Below are positions 1 through 30,970 of a stretch of 55,694 nt of DNA, piece after piece (position 1 is the first letter of the stretch; every line of letters starts with the position of its first letter). The DNA comes from a virus (Duplodnaviria; Caudoviricetes). Made by a program: the position numbers and the translations under genes. The notes under the pieces were generated by a model. That model had not been told where the DNA came from. It saw only the letters and a list, made by a program, of their open reading frames with translations, and searched no databases. The stretch is taken from positions 1 to 55,694 of IMG/VR virus record IMGVR_UViG_3300035683_000205; one strand, given 5' to 3'.

Positions 1-1233
1 TCACGCCTCGCGCCTCGCCGGCACGGGCGGGGCCGGCGGCGGGTCCACCAAGTCGCGCAGGTGCTCCCGCGCCAGGTGGGTGTAGCCCATGGTGGTGCTC
101 AGGCTGGAATGGCCGTGCATCTCCTTCACCTTTACGACATCCTTGCCCTGCGCAAGGAGCGTCGTGACGCTGCGGTGCCGCAGGTCGTGCTGGTGTAGCT
201 CGTCGGGGAGCCCCGCGCGCGCCGCGGCCGACTTGAAGCTGTGGCGTAGGGAGGTGATCCGGTCGCCGCCGGCAGCGTGGCGCCTCGTACGGACGTGGTG
301 GAACACCCACTCCGAGCGGCGGCCGTCGTAGGTGGCCATCCGGAAAGCCGCGAAGTGGTCCCGCATCCTCGCCACCAGCCGGGCCGTCATTGGGACCCAA
401 CGCCCCTTCTTCCCCTTCGTGCGACGGCCGTGCGTCCCATGCTCCACCCGCAAAAACCCCTCTTCAAGGTCCACGTCGGCCCACCGCAGCCACAACGCCT
501 CCGACTCGCACCGCTCGCCCGTCTCGCCCAGCGTGAGGGCGTACAGGTCAAGCATGGGATCGCGGGCGCATTCACGGAGGAGGGCTTCGTACTGATCGTT
601 CGTGAGGATCACCGGCGGCCGGTCGTCCGGCTTCGGCGTCTTCACCTGGTGGACCGGGTTCGACTCGCGCAGCTCGAGTTCCACGGCGTACTCGAAGGCG
701 GCGCGGATCGTCGCCCGCTCCTTCTGCACCGTGCGCTTGCTGGCCTTGCCGCGCTGGCCCCCGTCGGCCGCCGGGCGGAACTGCTGCTTTGCCCGCCAGT
801 TCAGGAATTCCCGAATGTGAGGCTTCCGCACCTCGTCTATCTGGATGCCCGGGTAGCGCCGGTCGAAGAACTGCCGCGCGCGGGCCAGGATCGCGCTGTA
901 GCTGGCCTGGGTGCTGGGGGCGAGGTCCGGCACCTTGTCCAGCTCGTACTTGTCGAAGAAGCCGGCGGGGACGGGATCCTTCCCGCGGGGCGCGGCGGCG
1001 CGGCAGGCGGCGGCGCCGATCCCCGTCAGGGGGAGCAGGTCCGGCAGGCCCAGCTTCCGCCGCCTCGCCTGGTCAACCAGCTGCGCGTGCTTCGTCTTCG
1101 CGAACCCCTCCACCTCGCGGCGGCTCACGCCGGGAAGCGTGAAGGTGTGGCGCACGCGGTCCACCTTGAGGATCAGCCGGTAGGAGTCGCCGCGTTTCTC
1201 GATAGTGCCGGGGTACTTCTTCGTCGCTGCCAT
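1..1233 (-). CDS. int: Tyrosine recombinase / phage integrase
   Basis: Catalytic signature TGER..EAL, TK, HDLRH, HGHSSLSTTMGY; short N-terminal arm-binding-like domain. Confidence 0.95.
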   Translation of the reverse strand: MAATKKYPGTIEKRGDSYRLILKVDRVRHTFTLPGVSRREVEGFAKTKHAQLVDQARRRKLGLPDLLPLTGIGAAACRAAAPRGKDPVPAGFFDKYELDKVPDLAPSTQASYSAILARARQFFDRRYPGIQIDEVRKPHIREFLNWRAKQQFRPAADGGQRGKASKRTVQKERATIRAAFEYAVELELRESNPVHQVKTPKPDDRPPVILTNDQYEALLRECARDPMLDLYALTLGETGERCESEALWLRWADVDLEEGFLRVEHGTHGRRTKGKKGRWVPMTARLVARMRDHFAAFRMATYDGRRSEWVFHHVRTRRHAAGGDRITSLRHSFKSAAARAGLPDELHQHDLRHRSVTTLLAQGKDVVKVKEMHGHSSLSTTMGYTHLAREHLRDLVDPPPAPPVPARREA

Positions 1234-3563: not shown

Positions 3564-3573
3564 GATAACGATT

Positions 3574-9101: not shown

Positions 9102-9760
9102 TGCTGATATTCGGGATCGACAGCGGGATGGACCTGGTTGCCGGGGTGCTGGTGGACACCAGCCGATGCCCCGGCCCGCTCCCCCGCGACCTGGACGGCT
9201 TCGCCCGCGCCGCGCACGGCTTCGCCCGCGAGGTCCGCGTCTCCACCTCGCCGCGGCACTCCACCGTGGAGCGCTGCCGCCAGATCCGGGACGGCCTTCG
9301 CGCCGAGGTGCCGGCCGGGCTGGACGTCGTGCTGATCGAGGTGCCGCGGATCGACGGCCGGTACAGGCGCAACGAAAAGCTGGGCGAGAATGAGATCGTC
9401 GCGGACCTCTCGAAGCTCAACCGCAGCATCGGTGCGATCTCCGCTTCGGTGGACGCGCTGTTGGTGCTGGAGGTGGCGGCGCCCGCCAACAGCAAGGAGG
9501 CCCGGCGGGCGGTGGTGAACGCCGCGCTGCGCGCCGCGGGGAAGGCAGAGATCCGCAACGGCGACGTGGTGGACGCCGCGTACCACACCCTCCACGCCGC
9601 GGCGGCTGTGCTCCGCACCCCCACCTACTTCGCGTCCCACGTGTTCGGGGGCAAGCTGTACGAGTCGCCGGCTGCAGCTGCAGGTGCCCGGCGGAAGGAC
9701 GAAGAACGACAGACACCGCGGGCGCGCAGGGGGCCCGCTCAACCGAGAAAGGCACGATGA
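9101..9760 (+). CDS. RuvC-like Holliday junction resolvase
   Basis: IFGIDSG, VVLIE and DVVDA acidic motifs in RNase H/RuvC order. Confidence 0.6.
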   Translation: MLIFGIDSGMDLVAGVLVDTSRCPGPLPRDLDGFARAAHGFAREVRVSTSPRHSTVERCRQIRDGLRAEVPAGLDVVLIEVPRIDGRYRRNEKLGENEIVADLSKLNRSIGAISASVDALLVLEVAAPANSKEARRAVVNAALRAAGKAEIRNGDVVDAAYHTLHAAAAVLRTPTYFASHVFGGKLYESPAAAAGARRKDEERQTPRARRGPAQPRKAR

Positions 9761-10302
9761 TCGAGAACGGCAACGAATTGCCCGCGCCCGCGACGGCGGC
9801 GATGGAGAGCGCGGCTGATCAGGTGGTGCTCGCGGGGGAATCGCTGGGCGTCCACGAGGGGGAGAGCTTCGGCGAGCCGGTGCTGGTGGTGGTGGCCGTG
9901 GGCGACGAGGTGGCGGCGCTGCGCCGGCTGCTTTCGCTGGTGGCGGCCCCGGAGACCGCAGGCGGGCGGCGCGTGAACGCCGAGCGCGAGCGGCAGGTGG
10001 AGGTCGGCTGGGACGCCGCGCACGACGAGCTCTGGCACGAGGACCGGGAACTGGAGGTGGTGGCGAAGGCATACCGCGAGGCGATGGGCCCGGATGCGCC
10101 GCCTCCACCGTACTGGCCGTGGGCGCCCTCGGACTGGAAGCCCCGCTCCAGGGCGGAGAACCTGGAGCGCGCCGGGGCGCTCTACCAGGCCCAGCTCGAC
10201 CTGGACATGGGGGACGTCGCCATGCTGGCGGAGCACCGCGACGCGTGCGCGGCCGAGCTGGACGAGCTGCTCGGCACGGCCGGGGAGGTGGCGAATGGCT
10301 GA
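9757..10302 (+). CDS. Conserved phage hypothetical protein
   Basis: ER.RQ...GW...HD and WPW...WKP..R..NL.RAGAL motifs seen in phage early proteins. Confidence 0.65.
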   Translation: MIENGNELPAPATAAMESAADQVVLAGESLGVHEGESFGEPVLVVVAVGDEVAALRRLLSLVAAPETAGGRRVNAERERQVEVGWDAAHDELWHEDRELEVVAKAYREAMGPDAPPPPYWPWAPSDWKPRSRAENLERAGALYQAQLDLDMGDVAMLAEHRDACAAELDELLGTAGEVANG

Positions 10303-11282: not shown

Positions 11283-11425
11283 TCCGCCCCCACCTGCTCC
11301 TCTCCACGGCCGTCTCCGCCCTGGTGGCGCTGCCGGCCGACCTGTCCCGGCGCCTGCGGGAGCGCCGACTGCGCCGCGAGAAGCGGATGCAGGTGCGCGC
11401 GTACATCCGCGGGAGGCGCGCATGA
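11279..11425 (+). CDS. Small basic hypothetical protein
   Basis: 4-bp overlaps with both neighbours. Confidence 0.45.
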   Translation: MIRPHLLLSTAVSALVALPADLSRRLRERRLRREKRMQVRAYIRGRRA

Positions 11426-13875
11426 TCTTCCCGCAGATGCTGCTCCCCCTCCACGGGGAGCTGGTGGTGGACCTGTTCGCGGGCGGCGGCGGAGCCTCGG
11501 TCGGGATCGAGCTGGCGCTAGGGCGGTCGCCGGACCTGGCCGTGAATCACAATGCCGCTGCCCTGGCCATGCACCAGGTCAACCACCCTCAAACGCAGCA
11601 TTTCATCTGCGACGTGTTCGAGGTGGACCCGCGCGTGGTCTGCCGCGGGCGGCGGGTGGGGCTGCTCTGGCTCTCGCCCGACTGCACCTACTTCAGCAAG
11701 AGCCGGGGCGGGAAGCCGATCCGGTCCGCCAAGCGGAAGCGCCGGGCGCTCGCGTGGGTGGCGAAGCGCTGGGCCGGCACTGTCCGCCCGCGGGTGTTGA
11801 TCCTGGAGAACGTGGAGGAGTTCGTGGGGTGGGGCCCGCTAGTGGGGCCGCCCGACGCGCTACGGCCCTGCAGCCGGCGTCGGGGGCGCACCTTCCGCCG
11901 CTTCGTCCGCGACCTGGAGGCGCTCGGCTACGTGGTGGAGTGGCGCGAGTTGCGGGCCTGCGACTACGGCGCGCCGACGATCCGCAAGCGCTTCTTCATG
12001 ATCGCGCGATGCGACGGTGCGCCCATCGTGTGGCCGCAGCCCACCCACGGGGATCCCGCGAGCCCGGCGGTGCGCGCGGGCAAGCTCCAGCCGTACCGCA
12101 CCGCGGCGGAATGCATCGACTGGAGCATCCCCATGTGCAGCATCTTCGCCACGCGGGAGGAGGCGAAGGCCTGGGGCAAGGCGCGCGGCCAGGCTCCGCC
12201 CAAGCGCCCGCTTGAGGCGGCGACCAACCGCCGCATCGCCCGGGGCGTGATGCGCTTCGTGGTCAACAACCCCTCGCCCTTCATCGTGCCGGTGCAGAAC
12301 GCCGCCGGCGGGAGCGTGGTGCACTCCATGTCGGAGCCGTTGCGCACGGTCACCGCGTACCCGAAGGGCGGCGGCTTCGCCGTGGCGGCCCCGGTGATCG
12401 CGGGCGTGGGCGGGCGGCAGGGGCAGTCACCGGAGCGCCCGGCCGACGCGCCGTACCAGACGGTCACCGCGAAGGGAGACTCCGCCCTCGTCGCGCCGGT
12501 GCTGTCCCCGCTCACCCACCACGGCGACCGCCGGGCGCACCCGCTCACCGAGCCGGCCCCGACGGTGACGGGCGCGCACCGCGGGGAACTGGGCCTGTTC
12601 GCTCCGGTGCTCGCCGACGTCGCGCACGGTGAGGTGTCGCCCTCCGGCGTGAAGCGCTGGGGCCCGGGCGCCCGCTCGGTGGAGGAACCTTCCGCCTCGG
12701 TGGTGGGGAGCGGCAACCCCGCGCTGGTGGCCCCGTACCTGGTCCCCCGCTACGGGGAACGCGACGGGCAGGAGCCGCGCACGATCTCCACCGAGGAGCC
12801 GATGCCGACGGTGGTGGGAACCGCCAACGGCGGGAGCCTTGTGGCGCCGGTGCTGATCCGGAACCAGACCGGCGACCGCACGGCCCCCGCGCGTGACGTC
12901 ACTGATCCCGCCGGGGCCATCCTCGCGTGCGGAGCGAACCCGGCGCTGGTCGCGGCGCACCTGACAACGTACCACGCCGAGAAGCGACCCAGCGACGTGC
13001 GCGGTTCCGAGCTGGGAGAGCCAGTGGACACGCTCGACACCTCCAACCGCCACGCCCTGGTGGCGACGTTCCTGGCGCAGAACAACGCCGGCGCGTACAC
13101 CGGCGCCGGCCGCGGCGCCGGCGAGCCGGTCTCGACGATCCTCCAGACCGGATCCCACCAGTCGGTGGTGGCAGCCAGCCTCACCAAGCTGCGCGGCACC
13201 AGCTCGGACGCCTCGCCGGAGGAGCCGCTGCACACCGTCAGCGCGCAGGGGACGCACCACGGGCTCACGACGGTCTTTCTCCAGACCCACACCTCCGGTC
13301 ATTCCGCGAGCTGGCCGGGCACGCCCCTGCACACCGTCACCTCCGGGGGGCAGGAGTCCCTCGTAGCGGCCCACCTCTCCCACTTCCAAACGGGCGAGCC
13401 GGATGGGGGCAACGGGGATCCGGCGGCTCCGATGCGGACCATCACCTCCATCCCCAAGGCGGGGCTCGTCTATGCGTTCCTCCAGGCGTACTACGGCACC
13501 GGCAACCAGCAGGGGCCGGGAGCGCCGCTCGCGACCGTGCCCACGGTGGACCGCTTCGGCCTCGTGCAGGTCCAGGTGGACGGCCAGCCGTACGTGATCG
13601 CGGACATCGCCATGCGCATGCTCCAGCCGCGCGAGCTGTACCGGGCGCAGGGCTTCCCCGACTCCTACATCATCGACCGGGGGCCGGAGGGGCGGAAGCT
13701 CACCAAGACGGAGCAGGTGCAGATGTGCGGCAACAGCGTGTGCCCGCCCATCGCCGCGGCGCTCGCCCGCGCCAACGTGCCGGAGATGATCGTCCGCGAG
13801 GCGCCCGCCGGTGTGGATCCGGGCCGATCGCGGCGTTCTCGCACCCGCCGCGCTGCCGCTGGAGGTGCACGGTGA
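11422..13875 (+). CDS. C5 DNA cytosine methyltransferase with internal repeats
   Basis: Motif I DLFAGGGG, catalytic SPDC, ENV, RKR.F, RELYRAQGFP, GNSV; about 12 P..TV/IT repeats in the variable region. Confidence 0.92.
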   Translation: MIFPQMLLPLHGELVVDLFAGGGGASVGIELALGRSPDLAVNHNAAALAMHQVNHPQTQHFICDVFEVDPRVVCRGRRVGLLWLSPDCTYFSKSRGGKPIRSAKRKRRALAWVAKRWAGTVRPRVLILENVEEFVGWGPLVGPPDALRPCSRRRGRTFRRFVRDLEALGYVVEWRELRACDYGAPTIRKRFFMIARCDGAPIVWPQPTHGDPASPAVRAGKLQPYRTAAECIDWSIPMCSIFATREEAKAWGKARGQAPPKRPLEAATNRRIARGVMRFVVNNPSPFIVPVQNAAGGSVVHSMSEPLRTVTAYPKGGGFAVAAPVIAGVGGRQGQSPERPADAPYQTVTAKGDSALVAPVLSPLTHHGDRRAHPLTEPAPTVTGAHRGELGLFAPVLADVAHGEVSPSGVKRWGPGARSVEEPSASVVGSGNPALVAPYLVPRYGERDGQEPRTISTEEPMPTVVGTANGGSLVAPVLIRNQTGDRTAPARDVTDPAGAILACGANPALVAAHLTTYHAEKRPSDVRGSELGEPVDTLDTSNRHALVATFLAQNNAGAYTGAGRGAGEPVSTILQTGSHQSVVAASLTKLRGTSSDASPEEPLHTVSAQGTHHGLTTVFLQTHTSGHSASWPGTPLHTVTSGGQESLVAAHLSHFQTGEPDGGNGDPAAPMRTITSIPKAGLVYAFLQAYYGTGNQQGPGAPLATVPTVDRFGLVQVQVDGQPYVIADIAMRMLQPRELYRAQGFPDSYIIDRGPEGRKLTKTEQVQMCGNSVCPPIAAALARANVPEMIVREAPAGVDPGRSRRSRTRRAAAGGAR

Positions 13876-14063
13876 CCCCCCTGGAGCTGGCCATCGCCTG
13901 GCTCTGCGGGGCGGCGATCTGCGCGGCGTCAACGTGCCTCGTGTTCTCGGGTCAGGACCTGGCGCCGGAGATCGAGCGGCAGGTGCGGCTGGTGGAGAGG
14001 GTCGGGTACGCCCCCACCGGGCTGGCGCTGGTGCTGCTGCTGGTTCGCGAGGTGGTCCGGTGA
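13872..14063 (+). CDS. Small membrane protein
   Basis: Two hydrophobic segments; GTGA overlaps at both ends. Confidence 0.55.
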   Translation: MTPLELAIAWLCGAAICAASTCLVFSGQDLAPEIERQVRLVERVGYAPTGLALVLLLVREVVR

Positions 14064-16672
14064 TCGCCCGCGCCGACGGCGGCCCGTTCAACCCGGACGC
14101 GTACCTCGCCTTCCTCCGGGCGAAGGCGCCGCCGGTCACGCGGTCCGGGTTCGACCTGGACCCGCGGGAGCTGCACCCCAGCCTCAAGCCGCACCAGCGG
14201 GACTGCGTGCCATGGCTGCTGAGCGGCGGCTGTCGCGCCGTCTTCGCGAGTTTCGGCCTCGGCAAGACCCGCATGGGCCTGGAGACGCTGCGGCAGCTGG
14301 TGAGGCGGTACGCGGGGAAGCAGGTCCTGATCATCCTGCCGCTGGGTGCCCGCCGCGAGTTCCGGCGCGAGGCGCGCAAGATGGGGATCCCGGTCACCTA
14401 CGTCCGCAACGACGCCGAGGCGCTCGCGGCGGGGCCCATCCTGATCACGAACTACGAACGCGTCCGGGAGGGGCACTTCTCTGCGCCCTTCCTCGCCGCA
14501 CTGCTCGCCGTGTGGCTGGACGAAGCGAGCTGTCTGCGCTCCTACGGCTCGAAGACGTACCAGCTCTTCAACGAGCTCTTCGAGGAGGTGCCGTACCGGT
14601 ACGTCGCGACGGCTACTCCCTCGCCGAACCGCACCAAGGAGCTGATCCACTACGCCGCCTTTCTCGGCATCATGGACTCCGGCCAGGCTCTCACGCGCTG
14701 GTTCAAGCGAGACAGCGAAGAGGCCGGGAACCTCACGCTGATGGAGCACAAGGAGGGGGAGTTCTGGCTGTGGGTGTCGAGCTGGGCGCTCCTCATCACG
14801 AAGCCCTCCGACTTGGGACACAGCAACGATGGCTACGACCTGCCGGAACTGCGCGTGCACTGGCACCCCGTCGCGGTGAGCCACACCGCGGCCGGGGCCG
14901 ACGGGGACGGCCAGATGCGGCTGCTGCGCGACGCAGCGGAGGGCGTGACGTCCGCCGCGCGGGAGAAGCGAGAGACCATCGAGGCTCGGCTGGCCAAGGT
15001 GCAGGAGATCATGGCGGCCGCGGAGCCGGACGCGGACGGCGGCCGTCCGCGCTGGCTGGTGTGGCACCACCTGGAGGCGGAGCGGCGGGCGATCGAGGCG
15101 GCCTGGGCGGAGGACATCCGCGCCGGCCGGGCCGCCACCGTCTACGGCACCCAGGACCTGGACGAGCGGGAGGCGACGGTCACGGCCTTCGCGGAAGGTA
15201 CGTGGGAAGAGGGGTGCCACGTCGGCACACCCCTGTACGACCTCGCGTCCAAGCCCGAGATCCTGGGCTCCGGCACCAACCTCCAGGGATACTGCCGGCG
15301 CGCCATCTTCATGGGGGTGGACTACAACTTCAACGACTTCATCCAGGCGATTCATCGGCTCTGGCGCTTCGGGCAGCTCTTCCCGGTCGACGTGCACGTG
15401 GTCTACGCCGACAGCGAGGTGGAGATCGTCCGGAAGCTCAAACGGAAGTGGCGAGACCACGAAAGGATGGTGGCGGGGATGGTGGAGATCATGCACAGGC
15501 ACGGGCTGTCGGACGCCAGCAGGATGGAAGGATTCGAGCGTACGATCGGCATCGACAGGCAGGAGGTGCAGGGCGAGCGGTTCCACGCGGCGCTGAACGA
15601 TACGGTGCTGGAGACGGCGTCCAAGCCGACGGACTCCGAGGACATGATCCTCACCTCCATCCCCTTCGGGAATCAGTACGAATACACGTGGTCGTTCCAC
15701 GACTTCGGCCACAACCAGGGGAACGCCCCCTTCATGGAGCAGCTCGACTACCTTATCCCGGAGCTGCTGCGCATCACCAAGCCCGGCCGGGTGGCCGCCG
15801 TCCACGTAAAGGACCGCATGCTGTACGGCACGGTCACCGGGCTGGGGATGTACTCCGTGGAGCCGTTCAGCGACTACGTGACCGCCGCCTTCCGCCGGCA
15901 CGGGTGGATCTTCTTTGGCCGGCGCACGGTGGTGACGGACGTCGTGAGGGAGAACAACCAAACCTATCGTCTGACGTACGGCGAGATGCTCAAGGACGGC
16001 ACGAAGATGGGCGTGGGGATGTCCGAGTACGTCTTGCTGTTCCGGAAGCCGCAGAGCGACACCTCCCGCTCGTACGCAGACGTCCCGGTGGTGCACGACC
16101 GGGAGTCGTACAGCCTGGCCCGGTGGCAGGTGGACGCGCACGGGTTCGCCCGCTCGTCCGGGAACCGGCTACTCCGGCCGGACGAGATCGCAGGGATGGA
16201 CCTCGATGCCGCAAAGGCGTGGTGGGGGGCCTGGTGCCGCACCCACGTGTACGACTACCGCGCGCACATCGCCCTCGGCGAGGAGCTGGAGCGTCGCGGC
16301 CGGCTCCCCAAGGACTTCTTCCTGCTCGCCCCGTCGTCGTGGTCGGAAGACGCCTGGACGGACGTGCAGCGGATGCTCACGCTCAACTCCGAGCAGTCGC
16401 GGCGACAGCAGGAACAGCACGTGTGCCCTCTCCAGCTCGACCTGATCGAGGGGCTGATCGAGCGCTTCACCAACCCCGGCGAGCGGGTGTACGACCCCTT
16501 CGGAGGCATCGGCAGCGTCCCCTACCAGGCCGTGAAGATGGGGCGCTACGGGAGCTTCACCGAGCTGCACGGCGGCTACTGGTACATGGGGGTGGGGTAC
16601 TGCCGCGCCGCAGAGGCACAGGCCACCGCGCCCACCTTCTTCGACACCCTTCCCGCGGAGGCCGTGGGATGA
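14060..16672 (+). CDS. SNF2-like helicase fused to a beta-class N4-C/N6-A DNA methyltransferase
   Basis: FGLGKT, DEAS, TATP, QAIHR..RFGQ; C-terminal TSIPF (motif IV) precedes DPFGGIGS (motif I). Confidence 0.9.
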   Translation: MIARADGGPFNPDAYLAFLRAKAPPVTRSGFDLDPRELHPSLKPHQRDCVPWLLSGGCRAVFASFGLGKTRMGLETLRQLVRRYAGKQVLIILPLGARREFRREARKMGIPVTYVRNDAEALAAGPILITNYERVREGHFSAPFLAALLAVWLDEASCLRSYGSKTYQLFNELFEEVPYRYVATATPSPNRTKELIHYAAFLGIMDSGQALTRWFKRDSEEAGNLTLMEHKEGEFWLWVSSWALLITKPSDLGHSNDGYDLPELRVHWHPVAVSHTAAGADGDGQMRLLRDAAEGVTSAAREKRETIEARLAKVQEIMAAAEPDADGGRPRWLVWHHLEAERRAIEAAWAEDIRAGRAATVYGTQDLDEREATVTAFAEGTWEEGCHVGTPLYDLASKPEILGSGTNLQGYCRRAIFMGVDYNFNDFIQAIHRLWRFGQLFPVDVHVVYADSEVEIVRKLKRKWRDHERMVAGMVEIMHRHGLSDASRMEGFERTIGIDRQEVQGERFHAALNDTVLETASKPTDSEDMILTSIPFGNQYEYTWSFHDFGHNQGNAPFMEQLDYLIPELLRITKPGRVAAVHVKDRMLYGTVTGLGMYSVEPFSDYVTAAFRRHGWIFFGRRTVVTDVVRENNQTYRLTYGEMLKDGTKMGVGMSEYVLLFRKPQSDTSRSYADVPVVHDRESYSLARWQVDAHGFARSSGNRLLRPDEIAGMDLDAAKAWWGAWCRTHVYDYRAHIALGEELERRGRLPKDFFLLAPSSWSEDAWTDVQRMLTLNSEQSRRQQEQHVCPLQLDLIEGLIERFTNPGERVYDPFGGIGSVPYQAVKMGRYGSFTELHGGYWYMGVGYCRAAEAQATAPTFFDTLPAEAVG

Positions 16673-17061: not shown

Positions 17062-17579
17062 CCGCCGAGGCTATGCTGGCGGAGGCGCGCGCCGCTCGGG
17101 GGCTCCCCGCCCCGGCCGAGGCGCTCGTGCCGATGGAGGAGGTGGTGCGCGAGTCCGGCCGCTGCCGCAAGACGGTGATGCGGCACGCCGGCGCGCAGGT
17201 GGTGCGGCTCCCCGGTTCGCCGCGGGCGGCCTGGCTGCGGAAGGCCGATGCCGCGCGTCTCGTGAACGACCTGCGGCAGCAGGATCCCGACGGGCCGGAC
17301 AGGCTCTGCAAGCGGTGTGGCGAGGAGTTCCCGGCGAAGTTCTTCACGCACTGCGGCAACGCCGGCACCGACACGTGCAACGCGTGCTACGCCGAGCTGT
17401 ACGGACCTCGGCGCCTCGTCCTCTGCGGCGGCGGGTGCGGACGTAGGTTCCAGACTCGCGCGCCGGAGGGCGTCGATGCGCTGTGCCGGACGTGCCGCAA
17501 GGCCGGAGCGCTTTCGCAGGTTCATGCTGACCAAAAGCGACAGGAATCCGGCGGGGTTCGGGAGGGTTCTCAGCCGTGA
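17058..17579 (+). CDS. HTH plus multiple CxxC Zn-finger protein
   Basis: MEEVVRESGRCRKTVMRH; CKRC, CNAC, CGGGC, CRTC. Confidence 0.6.
   Translation: MTAEAMLAEARAARGLPAPAEALVPMEEVVRESGRCRKTVMRHAGAQVVRLPGSPRAAWLRKADAARLVNDLRQQDPDGPDRLCKRCGEEFPAKFFTHCGNAGTDTCNACYAELYGPRRLVLCGGGCGRRFQTRAPEGVDALCRTCRKAGALSQVHADQKRQESGGVREGSQP
17527..17541 (+). repeat. Dispersed motif CTGACCAAAAGCGAC, copy 2
   Basis: Exact match, ending 35 bp upstream of the initiator start. Confidence 0.85.
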
Positions 17580-18928
17580 CGCCGGACCTGGCGGCGCAGC
17601 GCGACGCCCTGCGGAAGCTCCCCAAGGAGGAGCTGGTGGAGCGGCTGGCCGCGGTGGCGGCCGTCACCGTCGACCCGCGCATCTCCGCGAACACGGCGCG
17701 GCTCGTCACCCACGTCGCGCTGCTGGGGAAGGGGCTGCACCCGCTCCCCGAGCCGGAACTCCGCGCGCTGCTCCGCTGTGACGGTGACAAGCCCGTCCGC
17801 GCGGCCAAGAAGGACGGCGAGCACTACGGCTACCTGAAGAAGGTGGACGGGGGGTCCACCCCGGACCGCCTGGGGTTCCTCCCTTGGGTCTGTGCCGCCC
17901 TCCGGGGCGGCACAGACGGGGGTGCATCCGCCCCTCAGGGCGGTACGGCGCACGATTCACCCGCCCCCCAAGGCGGGTCTGATCCCGTCTCTCCCGCCCT
18001 GGGGGGCGGCACAACCGAGGGTGGCGTTTCTCCCTCCCCTGAGGGCGGCACAGATGGGGCCCCTCGCGCGCCCGCTTCCTTATCCGGGGTTTACACCCCG
18101 GTAGATACTCAACCAGCAGCTGCAGTTGTAGCCGCAGCGCCCGCGAACGGCGGCGGCGACAACGACGACGGATTTGGGGCGGAGGGGGACCTGGACGGCG
18201 AGGTGCCAGCCGTGGGCCCCCCGCCGCGGCCGGAGGGCGTCACCGCGGCGGAAATCATGGCCAGGGCGCTCCGCAACATGGAGTCCGCCGCGAGGGAGTT
18301 CCGGCGGGGGATCGAAAACCCGACTGCGGCCCGGGCCTTCTGGGCGGACGCTCGGCTGATTGCCCGCGGCGAGGAGCGGTCGGTCTGGATCGACCCGAGG
18401 CCGGAGGCGAAGGGATTGGAGCCCGCGCCCTGGTGGGACCGCGCGAGGCTGTTTCGACTGGCCCTCAGCTTCATGCTCCGCCCAACCACCGACAAGAGCC
18501 ACCGCGGAGATCTCCGCGGCGCCATCCGCCTGGCGCTCCAGAAACAGTACGACCCTGAGAAGCTCCGCACGGCCGGGACCCCCGTCCCCGGCACCCCCCA
18601 CGCGCAGCAGGAAGCCCGGTACCAGACCACCGGCGGCGCCGCCGAGAAGCCGGGGGGCTCCCGCCAGCTCTACGGGCATCAGGGCAGTCCGACCCCCGTC
18701 GCCGACGTGCTGGCGACCGTGGTGCCGCCCGAGGCGCGCGCCGTCGATGCGTGGCTGTCCGACCCCGCCAACCGACAGAAAGCGCGCGAGCTGATCCGCG
18801 AGGGCCGCAGGGCGTTCCCGCGCCGGCAGGGCGCCCTCCCTCCGGCTGCGCGCCGGAAAGCATTGCGCATCGACCTGCGTAAGCGGGTCGCAACCCTGAT
18901 TCAATCCTCAAAAAGCGAGGCCGCATGA
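17576..18928 (+). CDS. Lambda O-like replication initiator
   Basis: N-terminal wHTH-like region, then a low-complexity linker encoded by iterons; typical position. Confidence 0.65.
   Translation: MTPDLAAQRDALRKLPKEELVERLAAVAAVTVDPRISANTARLVTHVALLGKGLHPLPEPELRALLRCDGDKPVRAAKKDGEHYGYLKKVDGGSTPDRLGFLPWVCAALRGGTDGGASAPQGGTAHDSPAPQGGSDPVSPALGGGTTEGGVSPSPEGGTDGAPRAPASLSGVYTPVDTQPAAAVVAAAPANGGGDNDDGFGAEGDLDGEVPAVGPPPRPEGVTAAEIMARALRNMESAAREFRRGIENPTAARAFWADARLIARGEERSVWIDPRPEAKGLEPAPWWDRARLFRLALSFMLRPTTDKSHRGDLRGAIRLALQKQYDPEKLRTAGTPVPGTPHAQQEARYQTTGGAAEKPGGSRQLYGHQGSPTPVADVLATVVPPEARAVDAWLSDPANRQKARELIREGRRAFPRRQGALPPAARRKALRIDLRKRVATLIQSSKSEAA
17890..18110. promoter_or_regulatory. Putative phage replication origin: five palindromic iterons plus an AT-richer tract
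   Basis: CCGCCC-N4-GGGCGG (up to 1 mismatch) at 17895, 17928, 17961, 17994, 18033. Confidence 0.75.
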
Positions 18929-19544: not shown

Positions 19545-20735
19545 ATGGCCATCCAGCCAACCCTGTTCGAAGGGTCGCGCTTGACCCTGGACGGCGCACT
19601 CGACCTCACCGCGGCGTCGTTGCTGGAGTACGCTCAGAAGTACCGCCATTGGGTGTTCACGTTCAGCGGCGGGAAGGACAGCACTGCGACGCTGACGGTG
19701 GTCCTGCACCTGATCCGCACCGGCCGGGTGCCGCGACCCGACACCATCACCGTGCTGATGAGCGACACGCGGATGGAGCTGCTCCCGCTCCACTTCTCCG
19801 CCATGCAGCTGCTCCGCTACGTCGAGCGGGAGCATGGGGTGGACGTTCGCATCGTCCAGCCTCCGCTGGACCACCGCTGGTGGGTCTACATGCTGGGGCG
19901 AGGCGTGCCGCCGTCCGGCGCTCGGTTCAGGTGGTGCGTTGGCCTGTTGAAGCTCAACCCCATGTGGGAAGAGCAACAGCGGCTCAAGGACGAGCACGGC
20001 GAGCTGCTGATCCTCACCGGCGTGAGGATCGGGGAGAGCGCGGCTCGTGACCAGCGCATCGCCGTCGCCTGCAGCAGGGACGGAACCGAGTGCTCCCAGG
20101 GCTATTTCCAGCGCGACACGCCGAAGAACCTCGGCGCGATCCTGGCCCCCATCATCCACTGGCGCGTGTGCCACGTGTGGGACTGGCTCACGTTCTTCGC
20201 TCCGGAGGCGGGCTTCCCCACCTCCGCGGTAGCGGAAGCGTACGGCGGGGACGAAGCGGAGGAGATCAACGCCCGGACAGGGTGCACCGGATGCCCGGTG
20301 GCCAGCAAGGACCTGGCGCTCACCACCGTGATCATCACCTACCCGGAGGAATGGGGGTACCTCGCTCCGCTCCGCGAGCTCCGCGTGCTGTACGCCACGC
20401 TCAGGCGCAAGGAGCACCGCCTCCGCCAGCCAGGCGGGGAGACGAACGCGGACGGCTCTCTCGCAGCGAAACAGCACCGCATGGGGCCCCTCAAGCTGCC
20501 GTCGCGGCTCTGGGCGCTGGAGGTGGTGCTCGACATTCAGCGGCGCGTTAACGCTGAGGCAGACCAGATTGGAAGGCCGCGCGTTGACCTGATCGACACG
20601 GAGGAGGAGGCGCGCATCCGCGAGTTGGTGGCCGCGGAGACTTGGCCGCGGAAGTGGAGCGGGGAGGAACCCGGGGCTGATGAGTTTTTCGCTGAGGCGG
20701 GCGACCTGTTCACGTCTTCGAAGGGGGGCTCGTGA
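19545..20735 (+). CDS. PAPS reductase family (DndC-like) PP-loop protein
   Basis: FSGGKDS, SDT..E, RWC...LK..P, GVR..ES..R, RTGCTGC. Confidence 0.9.
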   Translation: MAIQPTLFEGSRLTLDGALDLTAASLLEYAQKYRHWVFTFSGGKDSTATLTVVLHLIRTGRVPRPDTITVLMSDTRMELLPLHFSAMQLLRYVEREHGVDVRIVQPPLDHRWWVYMLGRGVPPSGARFRWCVGLLKLNPMWEEQQRLKDEHGELLILTGVRIGESAARDQRIAVACSRDGTECSQGYFQRDTPKNLGAILAPIIHWRVCHVWDWLTFFAPEAGFPTSAVAEAYGGDEAEEINARTGCTGCPVASKDLALTTVIITYPEEWGYLAPLRELRVLYATLRRKEHRLRQPGGETNADGSLAAKQHRMGPLKLPSRLWALEVVLDIQRRVNAEADQIGRPRVDLIDTEEEARIRELVAAETWPRKWSGEEPGADEFFAEAGDLFTSSKGGS

Positions 20736-21343
20736 CGATGCGCTACACCTACCTCGGCGACACCTGGACCCGCCAGGACCTTCGCGGTGCGCTGTGCGAT
20801 GCCGTCCCCCGCCACGACGGAAAGTGCATCACGCGCCGGGGCTCCATGCTGGTGCGCTTCGCCAGCGGAGAGACTCACGTGGTGCTGGTGCGCCGGCTGC
20901 GCGTGAACCCCTACCCGGCGGCCCGCAGCGCAAGTGGGGGGCATCGTTTGGGGCGGATCGTCCTGCGGAAACACGAGAGCGGGTTCCGACTCCATCCGCT
21001 CTGCGGGCCCGCCGTGGCGGAGCACCGGGAGCGGATCCGGGTGATCCTCCCGCCCATGTGTCCGCACTCCAAGAACCCTCGCAAAGGGAGCGCGGTGGTG
21101 CTGGAGTACGCACCCGCCGGCGAGGTGCTGGAGTCGTACAGCGTGCGGCAGGTCGTCAAGCAGTTCGTGGGGGGCTTCGCTGGCCGGGGGAAGTACGGCC
21201 CGATCCGCGACATGGAGGGGATGCTGCGCACCTTCGTCCAAATGGCCGCCGACGCGCTCCGGGTGCCGGTCGTGGGGCGGGCAGTGCTGGTGCTGGACAC
21301 CGGTCGGAAGGAAGTGGACCTGCTCGCGGAGCCCGAGCCGTGA
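20732..21343 (+). CDS. Hypothetical protein
   Basis: GTGA overlaps with both neighbours. Confidence 0.6.
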   Translation: MTMRYTYLGDTWTRQDLRGALCDAVPRHDGKCITRRGSMLVRFASGETHVVLVRRLRVNPYPAARSASGGHRLGRIVLRKHESGFRLHPLCGPAVAEHRERIRVILPPMCPHSKNPRKGSAVVLEYAPAGEVLESYSVRQVVKQFVGGFAGRGKYGPIRDMEGMLRTFVQMAADALRVPVVGRAVLVLDTGRKEVDLLAEPEP

Positions 21344-22692
21344 CGCGCTACTTCGCCGCGGTGTCCCGAGTGGACAGCATCAAGCGGCAGGGGGTGCCAG
21401 TCCCGCTCCCGGAGTGGCTGGAGCACCAGCCAGATGGGTTGCTCACGTCGCTCGCGCACCCCGCGCCCTGGATCGCTGGCCGGGATGAACCTGCCATCGT
21501 CGACTGCGGGGCCCCGAAGTACATCCGGGAGCCGGTTCCGCGGCTGGGCCGCCACCTTGTCACGCCCGCGTACGCCCTCGATCGATACCTCCCGCTCTCG
21601 AAGCCGGGGGGCCGGATTGTCGCCCCGGACCACATCCTCGCCCCCGGACTCCCGGATCCGGAGGGCCGCCGCCGGTTCAACCGCGAGAGCGCAGTGGAAT
21701 TCCTGCAGCTCGATCACCGTGGCCGCATCCCCATGGCGGCCGTGCACGGGGAGAGCGTGCCGGAGCGCGTGGAGCGCGCGGTGGAGCTGGCAGAGGTGGG
21801 CTACCAGAGCCTGGCAGTGGGCGGGCTGGTGAAGCGCTCGCGGCAGACGGCGTTCTGCATCGACGTGGTGGGCCGGATCCGCCGCGCAGTCCCGGGTGTG
21901 TACCTCCACGTGCTGGGGCTGTCGGCGCTGCACTTCGTCGCCGCCTGGCGCAGCCTGGGGGTGGACAGCTGCGACAGCGCGAGCCCGATCCGCCAGGCAC
22001 TCAACGGCGCCTTCTGGGAGCACGCCCACGGCGACCTGGTGGAACACTCGGCCGTCGGCGAGGGGGAGGCGCCCACTGCTCCGATCTGCGACTGCCCCGC
22101 GTGTGCGGGTCTCCGCTTGGAGGGCATCGACACCCGAACGTTCGGGAGCAACGAACACAACATCGGCCGCGGGGCGCACAACCTAGGGCAGTACCTCGCC
22201 GCGCTATCTCACACCGCCCGCCCGGCGCTGGTGCTGGTGTCGTGCGTCAAGGGCAAGCATCGCCTTCCGCTGCCCGCCGCCGACCTCTACGAGAGCGACT
22301 GGTTTCGCAAGGCACGGGCGTACGCGGAGCACCAGGGCGGGCGCTGGATGATCCTCTCCGCAGAGCACGGGTTGCTGGACCCCGCTCAGGTGGTGCAGCC
22401 ATATGAGCGCAGCTTGTACGACATGGGCGCGCCGGAGCGGGAGGCCTGGGCCGGCCGCGTCGTGGGGCAACTTCTCGCCGTGCTTAAACGTGGCGAGCGG
22501 GTGGAGATCCTCGCGGGCAAGCCCTACCGGCAGCACCTCGTCCCGGCGCTTCTGGCCGCGGGGCGCGAGGTGACTGTTCCAATGGCGGGGATGGAGATCG
22601 GGCAACAGAAGGCGTGGCTGCTGCGAGCCGTCCGCGGCCGCGTCGTACAGCAGGTTGAGCAAAGCGACCTGTTCCGGAGCGAGGCCGCGTGA
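21340..22692 (+). CDS. TGT/DpdA-like transglycosylase fused to a DUF6884-like domain
   Basis: DCGA, APD, VHG, AVGG, HVLG, DSCDS, CDCPAC..HN Zn site; then LVSC..K..PA.DLY.S..F..A..YA..W.ILSA.HGL..P....PYE. Confidence 0.85.
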   Translation: MTRYFAAVSRVDSIKRQGVPVPLPEWLEHQPDGLLTSLAHPAPWIAGRDEPAIVDCGAPKYIREPVPRLGRHLVTPAYALDRYLPLSKPGGRIVAPDHILAPGLPDPEGRRRFNRESAVEFLQLDHRGRIPMAAVHGESVPERVERAVELAEVGYQSLAVGGLVKRSRQTAFCIDVVGRIRRAVPGVYLHVLGLSALHFVAAWRSLGVDSCDSASPIRQALNGAFWEHAHGDLVEHSAVGEGEAPTAPICDCPACAGLRLEGIDTRTFGSNEHNIGRGAHNLGQYLAALSHTARPALVLVSCVKGKHRLPLPAADLYESDWFRKARAYAEHQGGRWMILSAEHGLLDPAQVVQPYERSLYDMGAPEREAWAGRVVGQLLAVLKRGERVEILAGKPYRQHLVPALLAAGREVTVPMAGMEIGQQKAWLLRAVRGRVVQQVEQSDLFRSEAA

Positions 22693-23510
22693 GCGCCCCC
22701 GGCGTGGAGGTGCGGCTCCTCCGCCGCGTCGCGCATGGTGGCCCGGAAAGCTTCACCGGCGCGCAGCACGCGGTGGGCGCCTGGCACTACCTGGAGAAGC
22801 CTGTGGACCCCCGCGCCAGGCCGGAGGCGTGGGGCATCTACCTGACGGCCGTACCCGGCGAGCTCGCCGGGTACCTGATCGTCGGCTGGCCGGAGGCGAC
22901 CCGCTGCTACGCGCCCGCGGATGCGGCGGTCGCCGCACTGGAGCGGGACGTCCCGCTGGTGCTGGCGCCGCGGGTCCGCGCCCGCGAGGTCCGCCGCCGC
23001 CTCGGCGAGCTGCCGGGGTGGTACGGCTCGGTGGCCGACGTCGCGGCGGGGCGGGCAGTGGTCAGCCGGTGGCAGGTCCTGAACCTCGCCCGGGTGTGGT
23101 TGTTCCCCCGATTTCAGGCGGGCGGCGCGTACCACTGGCGCGAGCTGCTGCCTGGCTTCGTGGACCGCCGCGGCAGGTGGCGCTCCGCCCTGGGCTCCGC
23201 GGCGCTGCGCGCCCTCGTCGGCGCCGTCGGCGCCGGGTACCTCTGCACCCGGCCGCCCTGCTTCCTGGGGGAGCCGTACGAGGTGCGCTGGCTCCTCTCC
23301 TATTGCGACACCCGGATCCACCGCGGCACCCTGTACGCCGCCGCCGGGTGGGAGCTGTACCGCACGAACAGCGAGGGCATCCAGACCTGGCGCACCCCGC
23401 TCCCCGCCCTCTCCGCCGCGGAGGACGCGGCCGTGCGCAGCGCGGCGGCCGTCAACCCGCGGTCCCAAGCTCACCGGGAGCGGCGCTCCCAGCTCGCCCT
23501 GGAGGTGTGA
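22689..23510 (+). CDS. Mom-like GNAT-fold DNA modification protein
   Basis: WHYL, NLARVW and LLSYCD...HRGTLYAAAGW match the Mom-family SY.D..H.G..Y.A..W signature. Confidence 0.8.
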   Translation: MSAPGVEVRLLRRVAHGGPESFTGAQHAVGAWHYLEKPVDPRARPEAWGIYLTAVPGELAGYLIVGWPEATRCYAPADAAVAALERDVPLVLAPRVRAREVRRRLGELPGWYGSVADVAAGRAVVSRWQVLNLARVWLFPRFQAGGAYHWRELLPGFVDRRGRWRSALGSAALRALVGAVGAGYLCTRPPCFLGEPYEVRWLLSYCDTRIHRGTLYAAAGWELYRTNSEGIQTWRTPLPALSAAEDAAVRSAAAVNPRSQAHRERRSQLALEV

Positions 23511-23887
23511 CGGTGTCACGCGCCGATCAGCACCCCGACTTCACCCGTTCCGCGCCGGAGCTGCGCTGGGCGGGCAAGCTTCCGGACCTGTTTGACCAGC
23601 TGCGGAACGCCGCCGTGTTGCAGCCGGGTACCTGGCACATGCGTGTGCTGCCGGGCGGCGCCTGGGTGGGGATGCACTTCGACGCCTCGCGCGACGTCGG
23701 CGCCGGGCTCACCCTTCGAATCCAGCGAAGTGAGCCCGGCCGCACCCCGGACGCGGACCGACTGTGGCGCGCCGAGGTGGCCACCTTCGCGCGGAAATCC
23801 CCTGTGGCCGGCTGGGAGATCACCTTCGGCACGCACTCGAAAGGTGGTCCCCGCGCCACCTTTCGCTCGCCCATGGACCTCGGCTGA
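23507..23887 (+). CDS. Hypothetical protein
   Basis: GTGA overlap with the Mom-like gene. Confidence 0.55.
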   Translation: MTVSRADQHPDFTRSAPELRWAGKLPDLFDQLRNAAVLQPGTWHMRVLPGGAWVGMHFDASRDVGAGLTLRIQRSEPGRTPDADRLWRAEVATFARKSPVAGWEITFGTHSKGGPRATFRSPMDLG

Positions 23888-28388: not shown

Positions 28389-28988
28389 ATGCGAAGCGGC
28401 GGGGGCGGGTCCAAGGGCGCAAAGCCGGCTGGTTCGGACGTGAACGAGCTCGCGAAGCTGCTGGGGGTCACCCCCCGGCGTGTGCAGCAGCTGGTGGACG
28501 AAGGTGTGGTGGTCCGGCTCGGCCGGGGCCAGTACGACGCCATCGCATCGAACCACAACTACATCAAGTACTGGCAGGACCGGGCGGAGGGCCGCGCCGG
28601 CGCGAGCGCGCAGACGGCCGTCCAGGAGTATCGTGCCGAGATTCTGCGCATGGAGTTGGAGGACAAGCGCCTGGAGCTCGCCCGGAAGTACGGCGAGCTG
28701 GTGGACCTGGACCACATGGAGAAGGTGCTGCGCGGCGTCGTCTCGCAGGTGGGGCGGGCGCTGGACAACATGGCCGGGCTCCTGGCGCCGCAGGTGGCGG
28801 AGCAACCCGCGCCGGAGTGCTTCGAGGTAATTGACGGCTACGTGGAGGACACCAAGGAGCGGCTGCGGAAGGCGTTCGAAGAGGCCATGAGCGGGGAGGA
28901 AGACGGCGGCGAGGAGGGGCCCGGGGAAGCGGCGGATGTGCCCGGCACCTGGGCGGAGGACGACCCGGACGAGCTGGAAGAGGAATGA
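28389..28988 (+). CDS. Terminase small subunit, Nu1-like
   Basis: ELAKLLGVTPRRVQQL wHTH, coiled coil, GELV motif. Confidence 0.85.
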   Translation: MRSGGGGSKGAKPAGSDVNELAKLLGVTPRRVQQLVDEGVVVRLGRGQYDAIASNHNYIKYWQDRAEGRAGASAQTAVQEYRAEILRMELEDKRLELARKYGELVDLDHMEKVLRGVVSQVGRALDNMAGLLAPQVAEQPAPECFEVIDGYVEDTKERLRKAFEEAMSGEEDGGEEGPGEAADVPGTWAEDDPDELEEE

Positions 28989-30970
28989 TCTGGACGAAGG
29001 GGACCGCCCCGTCCGCGCGTCGCGAGGGGCGGAGCCGGGTGGCCGGTGTGATCCGCTCGGTGTTCGCGCCCAAGCCGAAGCTGACGATCAGCCAGTGGGC
29101 GGAAAAGTACCGCTGGCTGGACGAGTACACCGCCGGCGGCGCGCGTCCGTGGGGGAAGACGCCGCCGTACCTCCGCGAGATCCTGGACGTGATCGGGGAT
29201 CCGCGGACGCAGGAAGCCGTGATCATGAAGTCGGCGCAGGTCGGGTTCACGAACGGCATCCTCCTCAACATCATCGCCTACTTCATCCACCTGCTGCCGC
29301 GGGGGCTGATGCTGGTGCAGCCGTCCGAAGGGGCGGCCAAGAAGTTCACGAAGGACAAGCTCGACCCCACCATCCGCGCTACGCCCGTGCTCCGCGGGCT
29401 GATCAAAGAGCAGAAACGGAAGCGCGGGCAGGCGGACAACGACACGCTCCTGTCGAAGTATTTTCGCGGCGGGTTCCTTCAGATGGTGGGCGCCGCCAGC
29501 CCCATTGGGCTGCGCAGCTCCTCCGTCGGCGTCGTCCTGGTGGACGAGGTGGACGCCATGGACCCGCGCGGCGCTGGGGACGAGGGGGACCAGATCGACT
29601 TGGCGCGGGCGCGCACGGAAACGTTCTGGGACGGCAAGGTCGTCGTGGGCTCCACCCCCACGCTGACCGAGATCTCCCGCATCCTCCCCCGCTTCAAGGC
29701 CAGCGACCAGCGGTACTATCACATCACCTGCCCGCACTGCGGTGGGGAGCAGCACCTGGAATGGGGTGACCGCGACAGCGCGTACGGGATCAAGTTCGAA
29801 TACACCCGCACCGCCACTGGCCAGCGCCTGGTCAAGCCGGGATCTGTCTACTACCTGTGCAAGCACTCCGCCTGCCTGATCACGGAGCACGAGAAGCGCC
29901 GCGCGGTGCGCACCGGGCGGTGGATTGCGCAGAACCCCGAGTCGAGCATCGCCGGCTGGCACATCAACTCCCTGATCAGCGTGCTTGCCGGCGCGAAGTG
30001 GGAGAAGTTGGTTCAGCGGTGGCTGAGTGCGCAGGGCGACCCGGCGGCCCTGCAGGTGTTCATGAACACCGTGCTCGGCCTGCCGTGGGACGGTCCAGCG
30101 CAGAAGGTGGGCCCCGACACGCTGTACGGGCGGCGCGAGGAGTACGGCGCCGGCTACCCGGTGGAGGTGCCGCGCGGCGTCGGCCTTCTCACCATGGCGG
30201 TGGACACGCAGGACCGCTGGCTGGAGTACACGGTGAAGGGGTGGGGGGTGGAAGGCGAGTCCTGGGTGATCGAGCACGGCCAGCTCGTCGGGAGCCCGTC
30301 CAGGCCGAAGGTGTGGCGGGAGCTGGACGCGCTGCGCGCGCGGGAGTGGCAGCACGAGGGTGGCGCGCGGCTGCGCATCGCGGCCGTCACCATCGACGCG
30401 ATGGGCCACCACACGGAGGACGTGTACAAGTACGTCAAGCCGCGGGAGGAGTTCAACGTGCGCGCGTGCCGCGGCTCAACCACCCCAGGCCAGCCGCTCG
30501 TCGCGAAGGTGACCCGCCCCGGCAAGCGCGGCGTGCGCCTGGTCCACGTCGGCACCGAGACGGCGAAGGACACCATCTACGCCGTGCTCAACATCGCCGA
30601 GGGGCCCGGCCGGATGCACTTCCCCATGTCGCTGGACGCAGAGTATTTCCGGCAGCTGGTAGCGGAGACGCCTGTCAACCGCCTCCGCGGCGGGAAGATC
30701 ATCCGGCAGTACATCCCGCCCAAGTCCGGGCGTGTGGAGGCACTGGACCTGGAGGTGCTGAACCGGCTGGCGGTCCGGATCACACTTGGCCAGCGGTACG
30801 CGGAGAAGCTGGCGGACCAGGTAGATGCCGTGTGGGCGGAGGGCCTTCGGATCCGCCAGGCGGAGGTGGCCGGCAGCGCTCGCCCCCCCTCGGTCGCTGG
30901 GCCCGCGCGCCGCGGAGGGCGAAAGGGCGGGCGCCGGGGGGGGAGGGAGGTGTCCGGCGGCGTGCGATGA
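28985..30970 (+). CDS. Terminase large subunit, lambda gpA family
   Basis: SQWAE..R, KSAQVGFT, DEVD, STPT, SDQR..CPHC, FMNTVLG.PW, VDTQ, EALD. Confidence 0.97.
   Translation: MIWTKGTAPSARREGRSRVAGVIRSVFAPKPKLTISQWAEKYRWLDEYTAGGARPWGKTPPYLREILDVIGDPRTQEAVIMKSAQVGFTNGILLNIIAYFIHLLPRGLMLVQPSEGAAKKFTKDKLDPTIRATPVLRGLIKEQKRKRGQADNDTLLSKYFRGGFLQMVGAASPIGLRSSSVGVVLVDEVDAMDPRGAGDEGDQIDLARARTETFWDGKVVVGSTPTLTEISRILPRFKASDQRYYHITCPHCGGEQHLEWGDRDSAYGIKFEYTRTATGQRLVKPGSVYYLCKHSACLITEHEKRRAVRTGRWIAQNPESSIAGWHINSLISVLAGAKWEKLVQRWLSAQGDPAALQVFMNTVLGLPWDGPAQKVGPDTLYGRREEYGAGYPVEVPRGVGLLTMAVDTQDRWLEYTVKGWGVEGESWVIEHGQLVGSPSRPKVWRELDALRAREWQHEGGARLRIAAVTIDAMGHHTEDVYKYVKPREEFNVRACRGSTTPGQPLVAKVTRPGKRGVRLVHVGTETAKDTIYAVLNIAEGPGRMHFPMSLDAEYFRQLVAETPVNRLRGGKIIRQYIPPKSGRVEALDLEVLNRLAVRITLGQRYAEKLADQVDAVWAEGLRIRQAEVAGSARPPSVAGPARRGGRKGGRRGGREVSGGVR

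Follow-up and report, generated by a model that had tools for sequence, protein, structure and literature searches.

We analysed the IMG/VR record IMGVR_UViG_3300035683_000205, a viral sequence of 55,694 bases with about 72% G+C that is classed as a provirus; the whole of it is called the window below. Its central subject is a run of four co-directional genes which are predicted to modify DNA. They code for a DndC-like PP-loop enzyme (gene 1), a fusion protein with a QueF-like domain (gene 2), a transglycosylase domain joined to a DUF6884 domain (gene 3) and a Mom-like protein of the GNAT fold (gene 4). As listed in Table 1, an integrase and a large terminase are also present, and the modification genes have the early region on one side and packaging genes on the other. 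The four open reading frames (ORFs) are coupled by GTGA start/stop overlaps, which read tcGTGAcg at 20732, ccGTGAcg at 21340 and gcGTGAgc at 22689. A preliminary description, made from the letters alone, had reported such a chain, and the ORFs lie at exactly the coordinates that it gave. Note that 4-nt overlaps are ordinary in this window and nothing special by themselves, for at least five further ones occur elsewhere (at 5304, 9757, 18925, 28985 and 38613). The run also exceeds four genes, as a fifth ORF follows directly.

Table 1. Features of the window that are discussed in the text
Feature	Position	Strand	Basis
Integrase	1..1233	-	
C5 cytosine DNA methyltransferase, start uncertain	11422..13875	+	PF00145, E 2e-26
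SNF2-helicase domain fused to N6/N4 DNA methyltransferase	13811..16672	+	PF00176, PF00270, PF01555
ORF of 450 residues around the repeats	17576..18928		
Iteron-like palindromic repeats	17888..18062		
Possible ORF of 52 codons	19385..19543		
Gene 1 (396 residues), orphan DndC-like PP-loop ATPase, PAPS-reductase fold	19545..20735	+	family matches
Gene 2 (203 residues), small domain with no assigned function (about 3-60) fused to a QueF/QueF-like T-fold (about 75-203) with catalytic-type Cys110	20732..21343	+	
Gene 3, whole ORF	21340..22692	+	
Gene 3, N-terminal domain, DpdA-type DNA-guanine transglycosylase	21340..22215	+	profile, residues
Gene 3, C-terminal domain, DUF6884 (DpdC-type, YaaA-like fold family)	22216..22692	+	PF21818
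Gene 4 (273 residues), Mom-like GNAT	22689..23510	+	fold match, conserved residues
Gene 5 (124 residues), no family assigned	23513..23887	+	start 3 nt after gene 4
Large terminase	28985..30970		

Families of the genes in the run

The N-terminal domain of gene 3 resembles DpdA more closely than the tRNA enzymes. A profile of 20 relatives matched the DpdA structure 7ui4 at E 1.9e-23, versus 2e-3 for the best tRNA TGT. Eight residues (D55, D97, H136, D212, C250, C252, C255 and H280) are unchanged in 20/20 sequences, and they align with Asp95, Asp130, His181 and Asp256 of DpdA and with its zinc site CxCxxC...H. In DpdA, Asp95 serves as general acid/base and Asp256 as nucleophile, and Asp130 and His181 bind the base (PMC10164549; this and the other papers are cited from excerpts). 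The C-terminal domain matched PF21818 with 157.9 bits against a cut-off of 30 (E 2e-46). All fused relatives of gene 3 keep the CxxxK and LSAxxG motifs that define DUF6884 (PMC11701544). One passage of the GATOR-GC preprint names DUF6884 as the Pfam family to which DpdC belongs, and gene 3 is therefore predicted to be a DpdA::DpdC-type fusion. Fusions of TGT and DUF6884 are rare, with 28 proteins among 5.8 billion clusters, and the public protein P0020 has the two domains in reverse order. No description of a phage DUF6884 fusion was met in the literature found, where the supplementary tables of phage deazaguanine surveys may list such fusions or QueF-like genes. In the metagenomic proteins P0023-P0028, DUF6884 is fused to PF20815 and PF24698 domains. 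By tblastn, neither the TGT part of gene 3 nor gene 4 had a match among 50,697 phage records.

What is the protein encoded between genes 1 and 3? It had been described as unknown, which can now be revised, because it carries a QueF-like T-fold domain with a catalytic-type Cys, as indicated by profiles, by Pfam matches of its relatives and by the fold match of its AlphaFold2 (AF2) model. In exhaustive HMMER searches, residues 3-60 and 75-203 matched two distinct small-protein families, and no protein among the matches listed spans both halves. For the N-terminal family no Pfam match was obtained with the 10 members scanned, and nothing usable was returned from Atlas. Members of the C-terminal family all share a Cys-Pro, a Glu and an Arg-x-x-Glu. 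Its C110-P111 is unchanged in 44/44 members and aligns with the CP of the QueF segment SLCPKTGQPD. With a broader profile of this family (A3), B. subtilis QueF was matched at E 3.6e-4, the conserved Cys falling on the catalytic one of QueF, and the score dropped for the C55A mutant chain; QueF-Like 5jyx was matched at E 0.07. A narrower profile (A4) gave only E 0.8 against QueF. Seventeen of the 44 members match Pfam QueF (PF14489) at E<=1, the best at 3.6e-5. The AF2 model of the domain has a predicted local distance difference test score (pLDDT) of about 97. Structure comparison gave a tunnel fold, with QueF-Like (archaeosine synthase) 5jyx as top match (Z 11.2, root mean square deviation 2.1 over 99 residues).

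For gene 4, the start at 22689 is backed by the closest relative P0030 (MTAPSVEVRLL vs MSAPGVEVRLL), and a public gene call (P0029) begins five codons later. PF25680 scored 21.8 bits, below its gathering cut-off of 27.1, over residues 198-231 only; it is carried by most of the 120 relatives among the matches listed (45-69% identical). The AF2 model (pLDDT 89.6) had Mu Mom 8bv8 as its top match in Foldseek (E 4.3e-5). The same structure came first in VIA structure comparison, with Z 15.1 and root mean square deviation 2.7 over 147 residues, followed by a GNAT at 12.2. By hhalign (probability 12%, E 0.0024), H58, Y59, R111, S124, D149, R151 and Y159 of Mom correspond to H33, Y34, R135, S170, D207, R209 and Y216 of gene 4, which are conserved in 34, 34, 34, 33, 32, 30 and 34 of 34 sequences, respectively. 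Because the family profile found no Mom among the sequences of the PDB (best E 0.43, to unrelated chains), the link of gene 4 to Mom rests on the fold comparison and hhalign. On a viral contig that was fetched for the survey below (L035/L036), two Mom-like genes, 48% and 39% identical to gene 4, lie about 4 kb apart at 5001-5669 and 9207-9833.

Gene 1 matched PF01507 (34.7 bits) and phrog_12882 (E 8e-140). Against models of DndC (E about 1e-32 to 1e-35) it reached 111 bits with TIGR03183, below the equivalog cut-off of 290, and E 5e-35 with PADLOC DndC. The SGGKDS motif and six cysteines (C131, C176, C183, C209, C247 and C250) are unchanged in 5/5 aligned relatives; these cysteines may bind an iron-sulphur cluster. 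The family is present in 13 GenBank phage records. In two of the three phage regions inspected (phiC725A and RHph_N28_2) the homologue adjoins methyltransferases, and in the third none is annotated nearby. A role of gene 1 as a substitute for QueC was considered and dropped, as its family is found in phages without DpdA and its best matches are DndC models. Directly upstream of the start of gene 1 stands GAGAGGAGG, and the possible 52-codon ORF, which would give a very basic Arg/Lys-rich peptide, ends 1 nt before that start.

The family calls of the preliminary description were recovered. PAPS-reductase/DndC-like for gene 1 was reproduced by Pfam, PHROGs, NCBIfam and PADLOC, and TGT plus DUF6884 for gene 3 by Pfam. 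Mom-like for gene 4 was reproduced too, though by Pfam alone it stays under the cut-off. The two methyltransferases that it had placed upstream are both real by Pfam, one a C5 methyltransferase and the other a fusion of an SNF2 domain with an N6/N4 methyltransferase. Homologues of the latter fusion adjoin DpdA or a Mom-like gene at other loci. Gene 5 has no match in Pfam, PHROGs, NCBIfam or PADLOC, and nothing usable in Atlas (top score 0.83). On the + strand between 16600 and 26500, promoter-like and terminator-like sites were not found. The repeats upstream consist of 3-4 copies of a palindromic unit of 30-37 nt (GTCTGTGCCGCCCTCCGGGGCGGCACAGAC-like) and sit inside the 450-residue ORF, itself without a family match, a layout that recalls iterons embedded in a replication initiator gene. 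Because of these iteron-like repeats, an origin about 1.5 kb upstream of the gene run is plausible.

Neighbourhoods of the families in other loci

Do these families accompany each other elsewhere? On the side of DpdA, 22 loci with the subfamily of gene 3 were surveyed (14 viral and 8 genome loci), with flanks as fetched. DUF6884 occurs with this type of DpdA in 16 of the 21 judgeable loci: 11 have the fusion, 2 have it in reverse order, and in 3 the DUF6884 ORF stands separately next to DpdA. Gene 1 has a homologue in the flanks at 2/22 loci (L011 and, weakly, L006), and gene 4 has one at 1/22 (L012). Of the 14 whole viral records, four contain PAPS_reduct, and Mom and QueC were found in one each. 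Two observations on single loci may be added. One is that positions 442-9212 of L011 hold, in order, a DndC-like protein, a ParB_N/HTH_ParB protein, a helix-turn-helix (HTH) protein, a methyltransferase-like protein, a DpdA of the gene 3 subfamily, another HTH protein and a DUF6610 protein. This island may hold two transglycosylase types, because DUF6610, renamed DpdA4 in a 2023 preprint (10.1101/2023.04.13.536721), occurs on it together with the DpdA of the gene 3 subfamily. Another is that on the Deinococcus contigs L028 and L029 the two domains are fused in reverse order (DUF6884-TGT, about 680 residues), and that a further ORF with weaker likeness to TGT lies at a distance of about 4 kb.

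On the side of the QueF-like family, seven loci were collected. L031 duplicates L020, and L034 is a 1.2 kb piece without flank, which leaves five distinct loci with flanks. In 5/5 of them the overlapping neighbour of the QueF-like gene is DpdA-type. For three the neighbour is DpdA by Pfam or BLAST: that of L020 matches PF23859 at E 4e-22, and it shares 44% identity with that of L032 and 30% with that of L033. In L021 and L022 the neighbours are DpdA-like by profile only (probability 77%, E 2e-5 versus the PF23859-type set). The motifs DSGxF, QG, GxGG and HxWGV were aligned by hhalign, and inspection of the consensus by eye showed a DS motif; hhalign of profile A1 against these two neighbours was negative (E 0.38 and 0.1). 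Three DpdA subfamilies may have the QueF-like T-fold family as their obligate partner on DNA, in what may be a minimal two-gene, host-fed deazaguanine system.

On the side of gene 4, 12 Mom-like loci were surveyed, two of which (L035 and L036) score identically. None of the 12 holds any of the three DpdA types. In 4/12 a DndC-like gene is found no more than 5 kb from the Mom-like one, and both orders occur. In L039 the order is SNF2-methyltransferase, DndC-like, Mom-like, which is the order of the window minus genes 2 and 3. Genes 1 and 4 thus rarely accompany DpdA; they travel with each other and with methyltransferases.

A proposed layered island and its alternatives

How should the run be understood as a whole? 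With moderate confidence we read it as an anti-restriction island of mosaic make-up in a temperate phage, in which chemically independent modification modules are placed in one co-directional, translationally coupled run. Genes 2 and 3 would form a coherent 7-deazaguanine module with three pathway-type domains. The preliminary description had stated that the usual partners of these families are absent. For the deazaguanine part this does not hold, for the QueF-like and DUF6884 domains flank the transglycosylase. A search of the whole 55.7 kb record for QueC, QueD/PTPS, FolE, radical-SAM proteins, ParB, DndD and cysteine desulfurase (Aminotran_5 domain) found none of them, and the search for DndE was uninformative, as its control matched nowhere. 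What the deazaguanine module lacks is only DpdB and the genes for synthesis of 7-cyano-7-deazaguanine (preQ0). Because the record has no preQ0 synthesis genes, the module presumably relies on preQ0 of the host.

In the first step, the DpdA domain would swap guanine in duplex DNA for host-made preQ0, and in the second the nitrile of the inserted nucleoside (dPreQ0) would be processed on DNA. The DUF6884 domain could make the amide dADG (2'-deoxy-7-amido-7-deazaguanosine), as DpdC does, which turns dPreQ0-DNA into dADG-DNA independently of DpdA and DpdB (PMC10164549). The QueF-like domain could make the amidine, 2'-deoxyarchaeosine (dG+), or the amine, 2'-deoxy-7-aminomethyl-7-deazaguanosine (dPreQ1), as QueF-L or QueF do. 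Each of these two domains retains a conserved cysteine motif, and dADG, dG+ and dPreQ1 are each possible as product. Gene 4, by analogy with Mu Mom, would acylate adenine N6 in DNA from aminoacyl-tRNA. Mom has an HTH-like insertion that is essential to it. It moves glycine from Gly-tRNA onto adenine N6 (PMC13219725). Gene 1 may act against restriction or Dnd defence, and its phage family is usually beside methyltransferases. A phage PAPS domain fused to Dam conferred escape from Dnd (preprint 10.1101/2021.05.05.442762), and phosphorothioate synthesis requires a P-loop NTPase partner (PMC12914056). Genes 1 and 4 are best read as separate, mix-and-match anti-restriction modules of one hotspot. 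If the two upstream methyltransferases are counted in, C, A and G would all be marked by the island, and the layered marks most likely give protection against bacterial restriction enzymes. The preliminary description had also offered the reading that a temperate phage shields itself from restriction in layers, which fits the family calls, the integrase, the terminase and the provirus class.

Several points weigh against this reading of the run. Gene 2 itself has no Pfam match, PF14489 included, and the structural scores of its T-fold are tied (QueF-Like 11.2, FolE, i.e. GTP cyclohydrolase I, 11.1 and QueF 10.8). QueF binds NADPH with the motif E(S/L)K(S/A)hK(L/Y)(Y/F/W) and uses Asp62 as proton donor. 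In gene 2 Glu134 of this motif is kept, and both Lys and the equivalent of Asp62 are replaced (LEvYSL.. and CPvSkNPreGS). Since the motif lysines and the Asp62 equivalent are absent, an NADPH-dependent nitrile reductase is the less likely chemistry; the missing motif argues against QueF proper and does not decide on QueF-L. Gene 3 scored 67.5 bits with the DpdA model NF041059 of NCBIfam (E 9e-19), far under the equivalog cut-off of 200, and did not match Pfam DpdA PF23859 at E<=0.01, and its DpdA is a separate subfamily that is not filed as bDpdA. No ParB_N domain, as in the DpdB-type ATPase, was found in the record, and bacterial DpdA requires DpdB. Phage DpdAs function without DpdB and can draw on host preQ0 (PMC6884629). 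PADLOC DpdC matched gene 3 weakly, at E 4.9e-4 over 48 residues (311-358), and NCBIfam gave no match for its DUF6884 domain at E<=0.1. This domain has its closest relatives among DUF6884 proteins that stand alone in plasmids and phages (45-54% identical, with 127 plasmid records). It is far nearer to these than to bona fide DpdC, so it may not hydrate a nitrile. On plasmid pCMS1 (L048), positions 2690-4450, a standalone DUF6884 gene stands with ssb and an annotated antirestriction gene beside IncP-type partition genes, with no DpdA nearby, a context hinting that mobile elements use standalone DUF6884 for establishment or against defence. In the flanks of DpdA no clear QueF-like domain was found in the 22 loci, with one weak match in L028 (E 3e-5). 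As many of the viral records are fragments, and duplicates or kin make up several of the loci, the counts do not represent independent events. Finally, tight coupling of all four genes would be equally expected from a single pathway.

Two other accounts are both unlikely in our estimation. The first is that genes 2 and 3 insert no 7-deazaguanine at all. On this account the TGT domain would act on another base, by exchange or excision, or do nothing in a host that lacks preQ0, the DUF6884 domain would be a general DNA-binding or base-flipping establishment factor of mobile elements, and the T-fold would bind another purine or pterin, which agrees with its tie with FolE. Standalone DUF6884 is indeed common on plasmids, and one member has been linked to DNA-lesion recognition (PMC11701544). 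Moreover, 122 of 146 phage records with DUF6884 are mycobacteriophages, whose hosts have no preQ0 (PMC6884629), and mycobacteriophage Orion, which has DpdA only, showed no modification (same source). What speaks on the other side is that all substrate-binding and catalytic residues of DpdA are invariant, that the QueF-type Cys is invariant in a family bound to DpdA-type neighbours in every distinct locus, and that DpdC is reported as the most frequent cluster partner of dpdAB.

The second is that the DndC-like and Mom-like genes and the methyltransferases make up one system, with genes 2 and 3 as a cassette inserted between them. The proximity of DndC-like and Mom-like genes in 4/12 loci and the gene order of L039 are what this account predicts, and both kinds of gene are found in Aca-regulated anti-defence operons (PMC13551039). 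It is weakened by the 8/12 Mom-like loci that have no DndC-like gene and by the 13 GenBank phage records of the DndC-like family, which have no relative of gene 4. Mu Mom, too, is described as a single sufficient enzyme (PMC13219725). The loci which the two genes share also share methyltransferases, and they may be kin with a common hotspot.

Then could all four enzymes act in sequence on 7-deazaguanine in DNA and build a single undescribed base, as the preliminary description had proposed in speaking of one new pathway? The product might be an aminoacylated dPreQ1, made by the QueF-like domain and then the Mom-like GNAT, or a thio- or amidino-dADG, if the DndC-like enzyme adenylates and then thiolates or amidates the dADG carboxamide. 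The coupling of the four genes would suit this, as would L012, in which DpdA is directly followed by the Mom-like ORF, the PAPS_reduct gene within about 6 kb of DpdA in 3/14 viral records (L006, L011 and L015), and the acylated or alkylated dPreQ1 derivatives known in phages (preprint 10.1101/2023.04.13.536721). We judge it improbable, the least likely of the accounts, for the neighbourhood check did not bear it out: co-occurrence is weak both ways between DpdA and Mom-like genes (0/12 and 1/22 loci), gene 1 is at only 2/22 and a QueF-like domain clearly at none of the DpdA loci, the lone Mom-like copy near DpdA (L012) has an internal TGA, the family of gene 1 lives in GenBank phages without DpdA or Mom, and gene 4 conserves the equivalents of the adenine-directed active site of Mom. 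No description of DpdA, Mom and PAPS reductase together as one system was found in the literature; the excerpt of PMC10853773 has no passage on TGT, DpdA or Mom.

Comparison with known systems

The mosaic island can be compared with known systems module by module. Gene 1 is like the sulfur-transfer PP-loop ATPases DndC, SspD and BrxP in its SGGKDS PP-loop, its conserved cysteine set and its protein-wide match (E 1e-32 to 1e-35). Unlike in Dnd systems, no DndA or DndD was found in the record, there is no P-loop NTPase partner and the DndC score is below the cut-off; and unlike the anti-Dnd PAPS protein of Vibrio phage, gene 1 carries no methylase fusion. Gene 4 shares with Mu Mom (8bv8; PMC13219725) the GNAT fold, for which Mom is the closest match (Z 15.1), and the conserved equivalents of active-site residues. 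It differs in having about 18% identity, a sub-cut-off Pfam score, a 35-residue insertion (about 75-110) and no Com-like regulator identified.

The set of three domains that is predicted to swap guanine for a 7-deazaguanine was previously unrecognised. The phage route to dADG has been called poorly explained (PMC8306585), and in the excerpts of the phage surveys of 2019 (PMC6884629) and 2023 (10.1101/2023.04.13.536721) DpdC is mentioned only as a bacterial enzyme. The fusion of DpdA with a DpdC-type domain, which occurs in either order in prophage-like loci of several phyla, is a testable candidate for phage dADG. The QueF-like family, which falls under Pfam thresholds and has a DpdA-type neighbour in 5/5 loci, may mark deazaguanine systems that annotation has missed. 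More generally, the island illustrates how a temperate phage might stack C, A and G marks in one operon, which bears on inferring restriction evasion from sequence.

In the bacterial Dpd system of Salmonella Montevideo (dpdA-dpdB-dpdC; PMC10164549), the transglycosylase shares with gene 3 its two catalytic Asp, the Asp and His that bind the base and the zinc motif, and it has a partner of the DUF6884 family as well. Unlike there, the two are fused here into one protein, DpdB and the restriction genes dpdD-K are absent, and the genes are part of a prophage; to DpdC the DUF6884 domain shows only distant similarity (PADLOC E 4.9e-4). The phage systems with DpdA and QueF or QueF-L, for example that of Streptococcus phage Dp-1 and that of Halovirus HVTV-1 (PMC6884629), differ from the window in that its T-fold protein is unrecognised by Pfam QueF, has no NADPH-motif lysines and is fused to an extra small domain, and in that it has no FolE, QueD, QueE or QueC. 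What they have in common with it is a DpdA beside a small T-fold protein, with a precursor that may be made by the host.

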